Virus record (IMG/VR): IMGVR_UViG_2713896779_000022
DNA length: 35,191 bases
From: a virus
Taxonomy: Duplodnaviria; Heunggongvirae; Uroviricota; Caudoviricetes
Reading direction: 5' to 3' (one strand)
Shown: one piece after another, positions 8,775-35,191 of the stretch
Numbering within the stretch: the first letter of the stretch is position 1
Layout: each line of letters opens with the position of its first letter
Made by a program: the position numbers and the translations under genes
Notes under the pieces: generated by a model
The model's input: only the letters and a program-made list of their open reading frames with translations
Database searches by the model: none
Told to the model about the DNA's origin: nothing

Positions 8775-8944
8775 TTTAATGCTGGCCACTCATACCCTCA
8801 TACCTGGTAATAAGTGGCCAGTCTTAACACTCACCATTTGATTGCACCAGTGTTAACGATTTGTTACCGGATATCAGACGCGCTGGATAGCCAGTAGAAA
8901 CATACCATTAAAATTATTACAATAATTGGTCACATGATTATCTT

Positions 8945-9508
8945 ATGCTAAATAATAGAGATATGAATATTAATGAACTTAAAGACTGTATTCACTATGA
9001 AGTAATCGGTAGCGAGCGTCCTTTCTCCTGGCGAAAGGCAATTGTTCGCGCAATAAAACATAGAAGAGTTCGTTATTTATTTTGGTGGCGCATAGCCAAA
9101 TACCTTTTTGATAAAGGCGGATACTGTCGGAAGATTGCGGGGAAAATAGAACGTTTCATTCTTGATAAATATAATGTAACAGTCCCTTTAACTGTAAATA
9201 TAGGGAAAGGCTTTGATATTTCTTATCTCAATAGTGTTGTTATCGGTCACAAAGTAACCATCGGTGAAAATTGTTCAATAAAACCAGGGGTAACTATTGG
9301 GCTACGTGGTGATTTTAATGATATGGATATTGTTATAGGACATAATGTGACCATTGGTTGTAATGCCACCATTCTTGGTGGCAAAGTGCGTATAGGAAAC
9401 AATGTCACAATAGGTGCTCATGCATTGGTATTGCATGATATTCCTGATGATTCAACATTCATCACTAAATTTCAGTCTGAAGTTATCTGCTCGTCCTCCC
9501 GCACATAA
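8945..9508 (+). CDS. hexapeptide-repeat (left-handed beta-helix) O-acetyltransferase, WcaB/CysE/LacA-like; cargo gene at the Z/fun position
   Basis: Repeated [LIV]-G-x-x-[VI]-x-I-G hexapeptides ([45 protein letters not shown]); strongly AT-rich versus flanking tail genes; convergent with G. Confidence 0.8.
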
Positions 9509-10089
9509 CCCTGATTCATCAGCTCTGGCCATACGATATCCGGAGCTGTACTGGTGTCAATTCGACTCACTAATACTCTGTATTTTCTCCAGGAATCCAG
9601 TTGTGAATTTTCCTCGTTTGTTGCTATTTCAAGATTAACTGCATCCTGCAGAATTGCGATGTTATCTGTTGCCTCCTGGATCAACCTTGCCTTTTTCTCT
9701 TCCGCTTCCCGTATCCGAAACAGTTTTTCTGCTTCCTCATCCTTCACCCAGGATACGCCGTCCCACTTCTGATACTCCCCTGCTGGCGACAACCAGGTGA
9801 CATTCTCTGGTAGCGGTCCGGGTTCAGAAATAAACAACGCGTCCCCCGAGGCCACGTCATAGACCGTTTTACCACGATGGTCTTCAACAATATTCCACGA
9901 TTCATTTTCACTGTTAAAAACTGCCACAAAGCCAGCAGGAATTTCCGGTGGGGCGATATCTGTAGAATTAGCTGGCAGCCCTGTATGAGGTGGAATATAT
10001 GCGTCACCTTCACCAATAAACTCATTAGTTCCGGCCAGCAGGTTATAAATTTTTACAGTACGTGATTGTTCACTCATTCTGAATGCCAT
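9472..10089 (-). CDS. G: tail fiber assembly protein (Tfa/gpG-like chaperone)
   Basis: 205 aa immediately downstream of H, start overlapping H stop (TAATG). Confidence 0.85.
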
Positions 10090-11957
10090 TATGCAAGCCT
10101 CACAATATAATTAAATGCGATGTTTTTAACGGTGTTTTCCGCGTTACCAGCAGCGTTAACGGTGATGGTATGTCCATGTGAACCAATCGCAACAGAGTGC
10201 GTATGAGCGCCAATACCAACTGTATGTGCATGCGCCCCTGCACTTGCAGCAGTGCCTGATACTGAGTGGGTGTGTGCACCAGAAGAAGGCACTGTTCCAT
10301 TCCCCACGACCGTGCCACTTGATGCACCATCAAGCCAGTCGAAATTCATACCTCCACTGTTTGGTCTCCTTAATGGAACGGTATGAGTATGTGCGCCAGC
10401 ACTATTTGCAGTACCAGATACATTGTGGGTATGTGCACCTGTGTTATTCGTTGATTTAGTACCGTAATCAAACGACGATGTGGTTTTCGTACCCAAATCC
10501 GTACTGGATGCGCTGGCACTGTGGGTGTGCGATTTAATGCCATCCTGTTCCTGAGACAATACGGCTCGACCACTTGCGGGCTTGCCCTTGATTGTCCAGC
10601 CACGCATATCGGGGAGTACACCAGAGGGATAAGCTGCTGCAAGCAGGGGATAGGTTGTTTTATCAAAAGTCTGCCCCTGCATAACGGCATAGCCTGTAGG
10701 CACTGAATCAGAAGGCCACGGAATCGCCGCACCTACAGGAAATGAATCCTGCGGCGTCCATGCTGTCCAGTCACCCGTTGAGTACTGGCTGCGGGTATAG
10801 CTTCTGGATGTGTTATACACATAGTAAATCTGTGTTATCCCGGCACTTTTAAGCACAACCAGTGTACCGGCAAGATTCTCTGGGTATTTCAGCGCTGCAC
10901 TTGTATTGGCATTCGCAGGCTGATGGTACAGCCCCGGCGTTTTGTAATTATCCAGATTCTGGTTTGCACCAATCTCAATACTCTGATCGTTAAAAATATC
11001 CTGTGATGTAACATTGACATCATTGGTCAGTGGTTTGCCATTAACCTTACGTCCAGAGGGCACACGCCCGTTTGCATTGTCATTAGCAGCTTTCACCGCT
11101 TTCGGAGTCGCGGCAAGCGTTTCAGACGTGCTGTTGGTTGCACTAGTAAGCTGGACTATCCCTTTTTGTGCTGTTGTTGCATCCTGTGCGGTGTATTTGC
11201 CATTAGCAAGGTCATATGCTGCCTTTACCGCCTTTGGCGTTGCCGCCAGCGTTTCAGAATCGCTATTGGTGGCGCTACTGAGCTGAACAAGGCCTTTTCG
11301 CGTCGTGCTGGCATCCTGCGCAGTATATTTCCCGTTAGCAAGGTCATACGCGTCCTTTACTGCTTTCGGCGTTGCAGCTTGTGTTTCAGACACGCTGTTA
11401 GTGGCGCTACTGAGTTGAACAAAGCCTTTTGCGGTCAGCGAGGCGTCCGGGTGACGTCGTGACTGTTCATGCTCTTTCAGTTTGTCATCCACGTAATCCA
11501 CTGTGGCCATCACCATGGTGTTATCCACGGTAAGTGCCACGGTGGCAGTGCTGGATACGGTCAGAATGGTGCGAAATGTCTGTGCACGACCGGACCCTTC
11601 GGCAACGGCTGGCTTGTAACTTTCGGCAGTATTGCCTACCGCGATTAAATCGCCGTGCTCATCAAACACACCAATTTCCCGGATCCAGAATCCGCCCGTT
11701 TCTGGAGGAATAGCCAGCTCCGCAATAATGCGGTTCTGATGTGTTGCGTCCAGGAAGACGCGATTAACGGTATGTCGCCACACCTCACGCACAAGACGGG
11801 TCTGCTTACTGTCTGGCGTGGGTAAAGTACCGCCGCCGTCACCCACGGCCATATGTGTCAGGCGGACGGGTTTACCATCTGGTGCGGCTGCCTGCGCTAA
11901 TTTTTTGGCACCCGTATCGGTGATAATGGTTTTAAATTTTCGTGTTGTGGTACTCAT
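10089..11957 (-). CDS. H: tail fiber protein H (mosaic: P2 H-like N-terminus, His-rich distal tip)
   Basis: N-terminus resembles P2 gpH ([62 protein letters not shown]); C-terminal region has repeated GAHTHxV/GAHAHTV motifs and ends [11 protein letters not shown]. Confidence 0.9.
11081..11445. repeat. ~2.75 tandem copies of a 132-bp coding repeat inside H
   Basis: Units start near 11081, 11201 and 11333; encode three ~44-aa repeats ([39 protein letters not shown]). Confidence 0.8.
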
Positions 11958-11959
11958 GC

Positions 11960-12490
11960 TTAATCGTCCGGATAGATGGTAATGACTTCACCGTCGTAAG
12001 TTGCTGCCGCTGCGAAAATATCTCCCGGGATCTCCTGAATGATATTCAGCCCTGTCATGTGGCGGCTGACCGGGCGGGCATCAGCAATCAACCGCTCCAT
12101 TTCCAGATACATTTCCTCCGTCACGCCACTGTCCAGCGTGCCGACTTCAACGGTAAATGTTCCCGGTTCTCCGCCGAACTCCCACCACTCAGACACACGA
12201 ATGAGGTATCCCAGCGGCTCAATGGCCCGGCGCAGTGCGCTGATGGTCCCTTTGTGTCGGTGTATCAGCCATGCATCACGAATAACCTGTCGCTTTGTCT
12301 CTTCCGGCCAGTTGCGATCCCAGCGGTCAACGGAAAATGCCCAGGCGAGATAAGGCAGCAGATGCACCGGGCATGTGTCCGGCGACCACAGCGTGTTGAG
12401 GTCTACCGGAATGTCTGTAATGCGCGTTCCGACGGCTTCGGCACAACGCATGAAATTGCTGGCTGATGGTGGTAACAGCGAATTACTCAT
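11960..12490 (-). CDS. I: baseplate/tail protein I
   Basis: Start at MSNSLLPP (ATGA overlap with J stop); 176 aa as P2 gpI. Confidence 0.85.
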
Positions 12491-24318: not shown

Positions 24319-24702
24319 TTAGTCTTGTAGCTGCGCTGTCCTGCTATGCAGCAAAGCGGCGTACTTTAATGCGTCCTGTGCTTTCTGTAATTTAAGTGCA
24401 TAGTCAGTGGCGATTTTTTCCAGTTCAGCGATTCGGTTGTCTTTGGTTTCCAGCCAATCAAGTAGCGCCAATACTTCAGGATCCCCGACATCCAACACTG
24501 TTACGCGTGATTTTTCATAATGTTCGTCGGCAAGAGTTCGGCCAATTTTGAAATCTCCATCATCACCATAACCGGAGCAGGCATAAACAACCTGTGCTCC
24601 AGATATTCGCTGAATTGACATTTCCTCGCCGCAAATAGGGCATTTCGGTACTGGCACAGGTGAATAACGTTCACGTAATGCCTGATAGTTGATTTCGCTC
24701 AT
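24319..24702 (-). CDS. hypothetical protein with N-terminal Cys cluster (zinc-ribbon-like) and C-terminal coiled coil
   Basis: 127 aa; CPICGEE...YACSG then heptad-rich helix (IAELEKIATDYALKLQKAQDALKYAALL); downstream of parR on the same strand. Confidence 0.55.
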   Translation of the reverse strand: MSEINYQALRERYSPVPVPKCPICGEEMSIQRISGAQVVYACSGYGDDGDFKIGRTLADEHYEKSRVTVLDVGDPEVLALLDWLETKDNRIAELEKIATDYALKLQKAQDALKYAALLHSRTAQLQD

Positions 24703-24765: not shown

Positions 24766-25077
24766 TTATTCAGGAAATAACGCCCGGATATTTCCGGCCA
24801 TCTGACTGGTTATCTGTGCGGTTGATACTGGCTGTGATGCGGGGCGTTCTGTCCTGGTTTGTGTCAGGGATAACGCTTCATCGTCAGCCCATGCAGCCAG
24901 TCGGTAAGCCTCTGCCGGATTAATTTTCATAAGTGCCAGTCCGGCCAGAAAAGCCACGCGTTGACCACTTTTGCGGGCTTCTGGTGTAAGGCTGTCCAGC
25001 CAGGCGCATGCTTCGCCTTCGTTCTTGACGGCGGCGGGCTTCAGATAGAAACTTATCCGTCTGGTTGGTGTCGTCAT
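24766..25077 (-). CDS. parR: ParR/StbB-like centromere-binding adaptor
   Basis: Start at MTTPTRRISFYLKP with RBS AAGGAG 7 nt upstream, 4 nt after parM stop; resembles R1 ParR N-terminus (RRTIAFKL...LTAGLALY vs RRISFYL...FLAGLALM). Confidence 0.7.
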   Translation of the reverse strand: MTTPTRRISFYLKPAAVKNEGEACAWLDSLTPEARKSGQRVAFLAGLALMKINPAEAYRLAAWADDEALSLTQTRTERPASQPVSTAQITSQMAGNIRALFPE

Positions 25078-25081
25078 TGGT

Positions 25082-26041
25082 TTACTCCTTGTCCATTGCG
25101 TACAGCCCATTAACCAGAGCAAACTGTGGCACCCCGTCCGCGATGAAAGTCGCATTAACTCCGCAGGCTTCGCGGATAGCGGGTGCCACAATCTCCGCCC
25201 CGCCACCGACAACCATCACCCGCCCGTAACCCGAAAAGCCCGCCAGCGCGCGGATCACGCGTTGTTTCAGTGTTTCTTCCTTTTCACGAATAACCGCCAT
25301 CAGGCTGGCGTAATGCGCGTCATTGTGGATGTGCTGGCGCAACCAGGCTTCATCATGGCGATGTTCGATAATGGTATTGGCGATGTGGTGACTGGTACGC
25401 ATACCGTTAGTGGCCATCACCGACAGTACGGCATCGGCCATCAGGGAAACGCCTACGTGTGGATCGCAAAACACCTGGCTGATACCTGCCAGTTGCCCCT
25501 GAACCTTTGCCACATCCAGTGTGGTTCCGCCTAAATCCACAATCAGCAGGGATTCAAACGGACTCATGTCAGCCAGTGCTTTAAAGCCAGCCGGAATGGA
25601 TTCAGGCATAACCCGTACGTTACGGATAGTGAATGCTTCGCCGTTCTGGTACTCCACCGGGCGCATAACGTTCGATTTTTTGCGGCTGATGTTGGCCATA
25701 TCCGGCTGTGCGTTTGTGTCGAAATACTCGCTCAGTGGCAGGGTGACAACCACATCCACCTCCTGTGGCGTGATGCCTGATTTGACCAGTGCGTGATGAA
25801 TGGCAATGACATTCACATCGCTGTACTGGTATTGCGTGTCGGTCGTCTGGACAAAGCGATCGCTGACCGGATCAAAACCATAGCGCACGCCATCAAGCAT
25901 GTAGTTCGCGGGCTGCGTGCCACCGAACGGCGCAGACCATTCCGACTTGAAGCTGTTCGGGCTGATGGCGTTGCGGCGTTCGCCGTTCTCAGCCCATGCC
26001 AGCTTGATGTTGGTGGAGCCGTCGTCGATACAAATTTTCAT
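25082..26041 (-). CDS. parM: ParM/StbA actin-like plasmid segregation ATPase
   Basis: 319 aa; collinear resemblance to R1 ParM along the whole length (IDDGSTNIKL.W, ISPNSFK.EW, YSDVNV.A.HHAL, IRNV.VMPESIPAG, DLGGTTLD, GGGAE, LVNG.Y). Confidence 0.9.
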   Translation of the reverse strand: MKICIDDGSTNIKLAWAENGERRNAISPNSFKSEWSAPFGGTQPANYMLDGVRYGFDPVSDRFVQTTDTQYQYSDVNVIAIHHALVKSGITPQEVDVVVTLPLSEYFDTNAQPDMANISRKKSNVMRPVEYQNGEAFTIRNVRVMPESIPAGFKALADMSPFESLLIVDLGGTTLDVAKVQGQLAGISQVFCDPHVGVSLMADAVLSVMATNGMRTSHHIANTIIEHRHDEAWLRQHIHNDAHYASLMAVIREKEETLKQRVIRALAGFSGYGRVMVVGGGAEIVAPAIREACGVNATFIADGVPQFALVNGLYAMDKE

Positions 26042-34358: not shown

Positions 34359-35191
34359 TGTACTGGCAATAGCGGACACTACCATTTGTTCTTTTTTTAA
34401 GCAGCCATCTGATGATATTTTTCCCTGAAGGCTGCCGGGGAGATATTCCCCAGACGAGAGTGACGACGCTGACGATTGTAGAAAATCTCAATGTATTCCC
34501 GTATTACTGAGATGGCTTCATCCCGGTTATTAAAACGATAGTGGCTCAGGCTCTCATTTTTCAGCGTTCCCCAGAAGCTTTCCATCGGAGCGTTGTCGTA
34601 ACAGTTACCTTTACGCGACATTGATGTTTTCAGACCAAACTGCTCCTGTATGACCCGGTAATCGTATGCGCAGTACTGTGAACCTCGATCAGAGTGGTGG
34701 ATTAGCCCGGCAGGTGGGCGCTGGCTCCTGAGCGCCATAAACAGAGCTTTACCTGTCAGCTCTTTTGTCATGCGCTCTCCCATGGCGTAGCCGACAATTT
34801 CGCACGTATAAACATCTTTGATGCCAGCGAGGTACAACCATCCCTCCTGTGTGGCAACATACGTCAGGTCCGCCACCCAGACCTGATTTGGTGCTGTAGG
34901 AGCGAACGTCTGGTTCAGCAGATTTGGCGCAACTGGCAGATTGTGGTTCGAGTTCGTAGTCGCTCTGAACTTGCGTTTCTGCTTACAGCGTAGCCTTAGC
35001 TCCTTACGAAGACGTGCCAGTCGGTCACGACCAACGATGATGCCATTCTCTGCCAGCTCCGTCTGGAGCCGCCGGGTTCCATATGTTTCGCGAGTGCGGA
35101 TATGTGCCACCTTAATCTCCAGTTTTAGCCGCTCATCACTTTGTTTTCTGTCTGAGGGTTCATGCTGTACCCAGTTGTAATAACCGCTCCT
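34359..35191 (-). mobile_element. IS3-family insertion sequence (distinct from the left-edge IS), inserted in int; continues beyond window
   Basis: Terminus begins TGTACTG at 34359 (IS3/IS150-type end); OrfB-like transposase on the minus strand stays open to the window edge. Confidence 0.8.
34397..35191 (-). CDS. IS3-family transposase OrfB (partial, N-terminal part and OrfA outside window)
   Basis: DDE-domain blocks (VWVADLTYV, HHSDRGSQY, CYDNAPMESFWGTLK); frame remains open upstream of the track start to position 35191. Confidence 0.85.
   Translation of the reverse strand, partial: RSGYYNWVQHEPSDRKQSDERLKLEIKVAHIRTRETYGTRRLQTELAENGIIVGRDRLARLRKELRLRCKQKRKFRATTNSNHNLPVAPNLLNQTFAPTAPNQVWVADLTYVATQEGWLYLAGIKDVYTCEIVGYAMGERMTKELTGKALFMALRSQRPPAGLIHHSDRGSQYCAYDYRVIQEQFGLKTSMSRKGNCYDNAPMESFWGTLKNESLSHYRFNNRDEAISVIREYIEIFYNRQRRHSRLGNISPAAFREKYHQMAA

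Follow-up and report, generated by a model that had tools for sequence, protein, structure and literature searches.

A serine acetyltransferase-fold cargo protein with an exchanged catalytic dyad, encoded beside the tail-fibre tip of a P2-like prophage

The 35,191-nucleotide (nt) stretch of viral DNA held in IMG/VR as record IMGVR_UViG_2713896779_000022 (the window) is a P2-like Escherichia coli prophage, and a cargo gene that it gained by horizontal transfer lies between the tail gene U and tfa, the gene for tail fibre assembly. The product of this gene is a left-handed beta-helix protein of the CysE/EpsC/WcaB branch with the serine acetyltransferase (SAT) fold, but alignments indicate that both residues of the SAT catalytic dyad are exchanged in it and in a clade of relatives that is under strong purifying selection. 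The gene moves between phages as one cassette together with tfa and the receptor-binding end of the fibre gene. We propose, at a probability of roughly 40%, that it serves lysogenic conversion: in the cytoplasm, its product would modify a precursor of some envelope glycan, or a different conserved acceptor that matters to the fibre inherited with it.

The cargo protein has the serine acetyltransferase fold

The cargo gene (Table 1) is a single plus-strand open reading frame (ORF) that ends at 9508 and whose longest form, from the ATG at 8945, encodes 187 amino acids (aa); residue numbers below refer to this form. Translation probably starts at the ATG at 8963, giving 181 aa, because divergent homologues begin at the Met in that position, and the same start is given by the RefSeq Prokaryotic Genome Annotation Pipeline (PGAP) to the gene of RM8352 (E. 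coli O121), which is 100% identical and is named 'transferase'. An earlier reading of this DNA made without database searches (hereafter the sequence-only reading) had described a strongly AT-rich gene with a 3′ overlap of about 37 nt with the convergent tfa, and in these respects it was right: the G+C fraction is 0.34–0.39 over 8750–9500 (0.37 for the gene alone) compared with about 0.45–0.61 on either side, and the overlap, at 9472–9508, is exactly 37 nt. The frame 8945–9508 is undisrupted. The gene span had been drawn from 8775, which is too long, as 8775–8944 is intergenic and holds a promoter-like site only.

The hexapeptide fold predicted by the same reading was recovered by the Pfam model Hexapep (PF00132), which scored 47.5 bits against a gathering cut-off of 27 (E = 1.1e-12); the Pfam scan of the protein returned hexapeptide models only and no match to SATase_N. 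The protein also matches the profile of PHROG 2154, a family listed as of unknown function, over its full length (E = 4e-79; residues 5–186 on positions 2–184 of 185), and members of PHROG 2154 in phage genomes carry the names 'serine acetyltransferase' or 'sat'; no feature sets the cargo protein apart from PHROG 2154 taken as a whole. The best NCBIfam matches all fell below their cut-offs, with scores of 80.7 against 150 for EpsC (NF041874, residues 30–173), 70.5 against 210.65 for cysE (TIGR01172) and 44.2 against the serine acetyltransferase threshold of 397 (NF008349), whereas the two WcaB models (TIGR04016, 59.8 against 194.65; NF007564, 62.2 against 196) matched the beta-helix part only, residues 82–173. 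The assignment to a WcaB/CysE/LacA type is therefore to be narrowed: CysE, EpsC and WcaB are the nearest families, although every curated cut-off for them is missed, and LacA and Maa are distant.

Structural comparison pointed to the same branch. The closest Protein Data Bank (PDB) entries by sequence are serine acetyltransferases (6wye, E = 6e-12 with phmmer from the single sequence and 8e-21 with the family profile). An AlphaFold2 (AF2) monomer model computed from 99 sequences, with a predicted local distance difference test score (pLDDT) of 91 and a predicted template modelling score (pTM) of 0.84, has four helices (residues 9–75) followed by the beta-helix, and Foldseek gave 87 PDB matches at E ≤ 0.001; each of the 50 top-ranked ones listed is a serine acetyltransferase. 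CysE (PDB 6wye, 1t3d and 1ssm) resembles the cargo protein in the last helices of its N-terminal domain and in the beta-helix, residues ~42–173; at ~180 aa, compared with ~273 aa for CysE, the cargo protein is without the C-terminal tail and the greater part of the N-terminal domain. The short SAT-like enzymes of polysaccharide clusters, EpsC and WcaB, are similar to it in size and architecture, and relatives of ~185 aa are widespread, but the cargo gene is phage-borne and does not lie in a polysaccharide cluster.

Both residues of the catalytic dyad are exchanged

In E. coli CysE numbering, we take the catalytic dyad to be Asp143–His158 and the residues that bind serine to be Asp157, Arg192 and His193. 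The cargo protein was compared with CysE by phmmer (Neisseria CysE, 6wye), by MAFFT together with 29 relatives, by MAFFT together with the Proteus cysE products from fetched loci, and by the family profile against the PDB. Asp157–His158 aligned with Ser93–Tyr94 in all four comparisons, the Asp143 column holds Thr79, and Arg192–His193, the binders of the serine carboxylate, correspond to Met127–Asp128.

These exchanges divide the family. His with an Asp or Glu partner is found in 88 of 116 unique phage and Enterobacterales members (the His-clade), whereas 29 unique family sequences combine Tyr with Thr, Lys or Val (the Tyr-clade), the Tyr at position 94 being present in 29/29. The Tyr-clade, a minority within PHROG 2154, is made up of the window protein, its E. 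coli copies, the metagenomic sequences P0007–P0014 (down to 53% identity) and the protein of Hafnia phage yong2, and spans identities of 53–100%. Residues 113–115, one helical turn above, switch along with the dyad, from Arg-Gln-Asn in the His-clade to Lys-Pro-Gly in the Tyr-clade, while the Gly, Ala and Asn positions of the beta-helix at 132, 134, 138, 151, 153, 157 and 158 are kept in both. No substitute invariant His was found in the Tyr-clade alignment, where H102 and H159 vary. Among 99 sampled short SAT-like proteins, EpsC/WcaB-type relatives included, 87 have His at the catalytic column, and Tyr occurs there only in the clade of the window protein. Four short SAT-like proteins from outside the phage family (P0072, P0084, P0104 and P0108) have Ser or Asn at this column, which may be independent losses of His or alignment errors.

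All beta-helix acyltransferases crystallized up to 2011 share a catalytic histidine (PMC3046976). With Asp–His replaced by Thr79/Tyr94 and the pocket at 113–115 reshaped, base-catalysed O-acetylation of the SAT type is excluded for the cargo protein. The SAT-fold beta-helix of the sequence-only reading thus stands, but its view of the protein as an ordinary O-acetyltransferase is doubtful, given the exchanged dyad and the absent serine-binding residues.

The same replacements contradict the name 'serine acetyltransferase', which, as far as can be judged from residues, is very probably wrong for the cargo gene. RefSeq and GenBank records do use that name, CysE is the best match in both sequence and fold, and a family member in Proteus lies directly behind cysE, all of which would fit a genuine serine O-acetyltransferase that boosts cysteine synthesis as an auxiliary metabolic gene (AMG). 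For P2-like viruses, a 2026 survey reported that AMGs of 'cysteine biosynthesis' are frequent (PMC13100340), and these might belong to the cargo gene family. Such an activity is nearly excluded by the cysE and EpsC scores and the missing SATase_N match given above, and by the change of Asp143, Asp157, His158, Arg192 and His193 to Thr, Ser, Tyr, Met and Asp. Even the His-clade lacks Asp157, Arg192 and His193 (MAFFT with the Proteus cysE products), so the PHROG 2154-type family as a whole is unlikely to use serine.

The dyad-less clade is maintained by selection

Between Tyr-clade genes, dN/dS by the Nei–Gojobori method was 0.07–0.13 where dS was measurable, the deeper pairs being saturated at synonymous sites, and the codons TAT and TAC both occur for Tyr94; the clade is under strong purifying selection. 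The ORF is intact in the isolated phages vB_EcoM-613R2 and Hafnia yong2, and the cargo gene of the window is identical to copies in apparently intact relative prophages. A decaying passenger of a defective prophage would agree with the frameshift in the adjoining gpU gene and with the loss of the canonical catalytic residues, yet 176 E. coli genomes as well as isolated phages keep the ORF intact, dN/dS is ~0.1 and Tyr94 is invariant in 29 unique sequences. The selection analysis largely refutes this explanation, which is likewise nearly excluded and is the least probable of those that we considered.

The main rival to lysogenic conversion is a pseudoenzyme, a Tyr-clade protein without transferase activity that acts by binding; it might sequester CoA or acyl-CoA (CoA, coenzyme A) or a sugar-nucleotide, or assemble with or inhibit a host beta-helix enzyme or other partner, with a possible regulatory, anti-defence or exclusion outcome. 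Both dyad residues are replaced together and the neighbouring pocket is remodelled, the clade is under strong purifying selection across 53–100% identity despite the loss of the dyad, and the His is otherwise near-universal, in 87/99 sampled relatives and 88/88 unique His-clade members. The beta-helix core is nevertheless retained, as are the small residues at positions lining the CoA groove of relatives, and no partner has been identified. Some beta-helix N-acetyltransferases (QdtC and WlbB) function without a catalytic base, so the loss of His is no proof of a loss of activity. We regard a pseudoenzyme as a possible but rather unlikely explanation.

The cargo gene is shared as a cassette with tfa and the fibre tip

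In blastn comparisons, a block that starts at 8875 or 8894 and ends at ~10742 is 82–96% identical to loci that are otherwise unrelated to the window prophage. The block includes ~50–70 nt upstream of the cargo gene, with the promoter-like site at 8895–8923. Its right boundary lies at 10724–10742 in most of the backbones compared (L098–L111), a few related loci breaking earlier, and falls where the conserved Collar domain begins in the fibre protein H (aa 409). At least four backbones carry the block: P88-like prophages, 47-kb RepA phage-plasmids, the 97-kb IncY P1-like phage-plasmid pHYEC7-mcr1, and further IMG/VR contigs and myophages. In pHYEC7-mcr1 (L172, NZ_KX518745, positions 7089–12234), which carries mcr-1, the cassette occupies the usual site of the invertible C segment and cin of P1.

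The pairing with tfa extends beyond close relatives. A convergent tfa lies within −36 to +50 nt of the family gene in 57/74 viral loci, and the same arrangement is found in the more distant members of Citrobacter phage phiNP and Hafnia phage yong2; phages of Streptococcus thermophilus have a relative with 30% identity behind the final structural gene of the tail. The cargo gene travels between phages as a single cassette with tfa and the receptor-binding end of the fibre gene. Crossover sites of the Cin/Gin/Hin type (AAACCNNGGTTT, ≤2 mismatches) numbered 16 against 15.6 expected, with none at the cassette borders.

The cassette occupies the distal end of the fibre operon

The window is a prophage of the P88 type (Xuanwuvirus, Peduoviridae) in which the FI–U block is inverted relative to P2. 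Its minus strand carries ogr and D, and its plus strand FI (3210–4394), FII, E, T (5441–8284) and U (8291–8774); U is followed by the cargo gene on the plus strand and then, on the minus strand, by tfa, H, I, J, W, V and the head genes. In the region 1943–8774, the block FI-FII-E-T-U is inverted while D and ogr keep the other strand, and the maximal D ORF and FI have divergent starts only 25 nt apart. As this is the usual order of P88-like phages (Xuanwuvirus), D lies outside the F operon in such phages. An inversion or assembly artefact as the source of the adjacency of U and the cargo gene was considered and rejected, since P88 and 176 genomes show the same order.

The sequence-only reading had placed the gene in the G-to-FI interval of P2, which holds the exclusion gene fun(Z). 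This placement is incorrect, because the gene lies between the gpU 3′ end and tfa (the G-like gene), with FI far away at 3210–4394 and on the same strand as the cargo gene. The comparison with fun(Z) nevertheless holds in part: in P2, fun(Z) lies between G and FI and is convergent with G, as the cargo gene is with tfa; the other flank differs, being gpU and not FI. The two slots are equivalent in that each is the distal end of the fibre operon. A comparison of occupants across P2-like prophages, which had been suggested as a check, showed distant homologues with 38–40% identity exactly between FI and tfa in prophages of true P2 order (L036, L159 and L161); in phage P88, the gap between U and tfa holds a DNA invertase and an invertible segment with alternative fibre and tfa genes, not Z/fun. 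The cargo gene shares with the invertible fibre segments of P88 and P1 and with fun(Z), a gene of 1587 nt and 528 codons, the distal place in the fibre operon and the orientation convergent with G or tfa.

The slot beside G that fun(Z) occupies in P2, together with the AT-rich, autonomous character of the gene, also raises the question of a single-gene anti-phage defence or exclusion factor comparable to Z/fun, which would acetylate or bind a small molecule of phage or host during infection and would not act on the receptor. P2-like phages do hold defence hotspots, but the hotspot described is a different locus and acetyltransferases are unmentioned there (PMC9122126). A scan of the protein against PADLOC-DB 2.0 gave no defence family at E ≤ 0.1, and family members occur at non-phage chromosomal sites as well, such as that behind cysE in Proteus. 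We consider a defence factor of this kind improbable, and more so than a pseudoenzyme.

Table 1 Features of the cargo locus in the window
Feature	Position	Strand	Evidence
Cargo gene, SAT-fold left-handed beta-helix protein	8963..9508	+	ORF, PGAP start, Pfam Hexapep, PHROG 2154, AF2, Foldseek, dN/dS
Thr79 codon ACA, column of the SAT dyad aspartate (CysE Asp143)	9179..9181	+	Alignments; Asp or Glu in the His-clade, Thr, Lys or Val in the Tyr-clade
Tyr94 codon TAT, column of the catalytic histidine (CysE His158)	9224..9226	+	6wye 'DH' over 'SY'; MAFFT; profile against PDB
Mobile mosaic cassette (promoter-like site, cargo gene, tfa, fibre tip), ~1.85 kb	8875..10742		blastn, 82–96% nucleotide identity to other backbones
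Convergent 3′ overlap of cargo gene and tfa, 37 nt	9472..9508		ORF map; same overlap in 27 related loci
Tail fibre assembly gene tfa, P2 G-like	9472..10089	−	Pfam Caudo_TAP, E = 1.6e-39; co-conserved with the cargo gene
C-terminal ~217 codons of fibre gene H, Collar domain to end	10089..10742	−	blastn boundary; whole H 10089..11957
Non-coding spacer, gpU stop to cargo ORF	8775..8944		ORF map; phage P88 homology stops at ~8779
Candidate sigma-70-like promoter TAGAAA-17-TACAAT	8895..8923	+	Consensus scan only; inside the conserved cassette
Tail gene gpU, left neighbour, inactivated by an 11-nt deletion between 8551 and 8552	8291..8774	+	Pfam GpU halves in two frames; PGAP 'frameshifted'; P88 alignment

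Distribution in bacterial genomes

The cargo gene was found in 183 of 5426 complete E. coli genomes (3.4%), in 222 copies with at most three per genome, 58 of them on plasmids. The junction of U, cargo gene and tfa is present in 176/5426 of these genomes and is 100% identical in eight O121 or O121-like ones. P88-type gpU occurs in 1403 of the complete E. coli genomes, so about one in ten P88-like prophages carries the cargo gene.

In nine Proteus species (loci L009–L012, L016, L021, L023, L026 and L060; ~7156–8546), a His-clade member of 185 aa follows the housekeeping cysE (277 aa), its start falling on the cysE stop codon. The tandem is chromosomal, with no phage genes detected nearby, and may reflect either a functional link to CysE or an old insertion. 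In Salmonella enterica (L007, CP191473, positions 5710–9947), a family member lies between a gene for a DUF6056 membrane protein, possibly glycan-modifying, and a Gp34_trimer tail-fibre gene. A general association with the GtrC-like DUF6056 protein was rejected, as this is the only such case and the other fetched loci hold no DUF6056 homologue.

Proposed role and competing explanations

We envisage an independently transcribed accessory ('moron') gene that would be expressed from the prophage. Its product would be small and cytoplasmic, with an N-terminal bundle of four helices ahead of the left-handed beta-helix, and by analogy with every solved relative it may form trimers with CoA-binding grooves between the subunits; the conserved Gly, Ala and Asn positions are compatible with a trimer and a CoA groove and prove neither. 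Using or binding acyl-CoA, the protein would modify either the precursor of an envelope glycan within the cytoplasm or some other small acceptor, acting either on an acceptor that needs no histidine base, such as an amine, or by binding. The surface altered in this way would be one that fibres of the same type recognize, leading to receptor masking or lysogenic conversion. We rejected a role tied to the virion or the fibre, because the gene lies on the strand opposite to the late operon and has a foreign base composition and an enzyme fold.

A precedent for lysogenic conversion of this kind is NeuO, the polysialic acid O-acetyltransferase of prophage CUS-3, a cytoplasmic beta-helix acyltransferase that alters a surface polysaccharide (PMC3046976). 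The resemblance is limited, the NeuO entry 2wlc being a marginal match (E = 0.0024, residues 125–173). In NeuO, the catalytic pair is His/Trp and there is a phase-variable variable-number tandem repeat of a heptanucleotide, whereas the cargo protein has Tyr at the position of the SAT His, and no phase-variation tandem repeats like those of neuO were found in the cargo gene.

Receptor masking or serotype conversion, as put forward in the sequence-only reading, is a reasonable idea that may gain some support from the tight linkage to the fibre tip. Several observations weigh against it and against lysogenic conversion more generally. The hosts are of diverse serotypes, including O121:H19 (Shiga toxin-producing E. 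coli, STEC), O6:H16, avian pathogenic E. coli (APEC) and others, which disfavours an O-antigen-specific target, and the presence of up to three copies per genome is unlike a strong exclusion of phages with the same fibre tip; the many serotypes and the frequent multiple copies together weaken receptor masking in particular. Family members in other genera are often found in non-phage chromosomal settings. The linkage to tfa could simply mean that the fibre operon ends in a slot prone to recombination, the site at 8895–8923 is a promoter-like candidate by its match to the consensus alone, and the loss of His may mean that the Tyr-clade has no transferase activity at all. A literature search for the function of the PHROG 2154-type family, or for an acetyltransferase beside tfa in P2-like phages, found no study; ORF4 of phiNP is merely listed as 'fitness' cargo.

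Lysogenic conversion can be drawn more sharply as a new conversion or exclusion factor, formed by a dyad-less, selected and fibre-tip-linked branch of the SAT fold. This would be either a tyrosine-based or base-free enzyme that acts on a conserved envelope precursor, or a pseudoenzyme that shuts off a host pathway on which incoming phages depend. In this specific form we hold the proposal only tentatively and would place it well short of an even chance, at about the level of the pseudoenzyme explanation above.

As the gene is annotated in hundreds of genomes and belongs to a PHROG, the object itself is not new. What appears to be new is the contradiction between its residues and its database name, the conserved clade with the exchanged dyad, and the fibre-tip cassette that recurs across myophage and phage-plasmid lineages. 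The gene is common, occurring in the 3.4% of complete E. coli genomes noted above, STEC O121:H19 among them, and on mcr-1-carrying P1-like phage-plasmids. Its routine label invites an interpretation as an auxiliary gene of cysteine biosynthesis, but from the residues this name is almost certainly wrong. The linkage to fibre tip and tfa across unrelated backbones bears on whether temperate myophages pair a receptor-modifying or exclusion function with a determinant of host range, and the clean split of the family from His to Tyr under purifying selection offers a natural experiment on catalysis by beta-helix acyltransferases.

The surrounding prophage

Compared with gpU of phage P88, to which it is otherwise 97% identical, gpU of the window has an 11-nt deletion that splits the gene into two frames, and PGAP marks it as 'frameshifted' in RM8352. 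Only eight E. coli records hold gpU at ≥99% identity, and the other full-length matches listed span 495 nt. With gpU frameshifted, this O121 prophage is probably unable to build tails.

The fibre gene H (10089–11957) contains three tandem 132-nt Phage_fiber_2 repeats at 11068–11463. The RM8352 prophage, otherwise 99.7% identical, has one extra repeat and an H of 2001 nt compared with 1869 nt, so the copy number varies between strains. Window positions 1–991 are unmatched in RM8352, which has tRNA-Gly/Cys/Leu there, indicating that the prophage flank is strain-dependent, and ORFs for IS3-family transposases (rve, HTH_21) lie at both window ends, at 61–951 on the plus strand and 34397–35110 on the minus strand. 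In the interval from the portal gene to the replication gene A, the minus strand carries the partition genes ParM/StbA and Plasmid_stab_B together with an Ead/Ea22-like gene, at 24766–26041 and 24319–24702. In about one in four P2-like phages, the variable hotspot holds a partition system (PMC9122126), and the partition genes of the window match this pattern.

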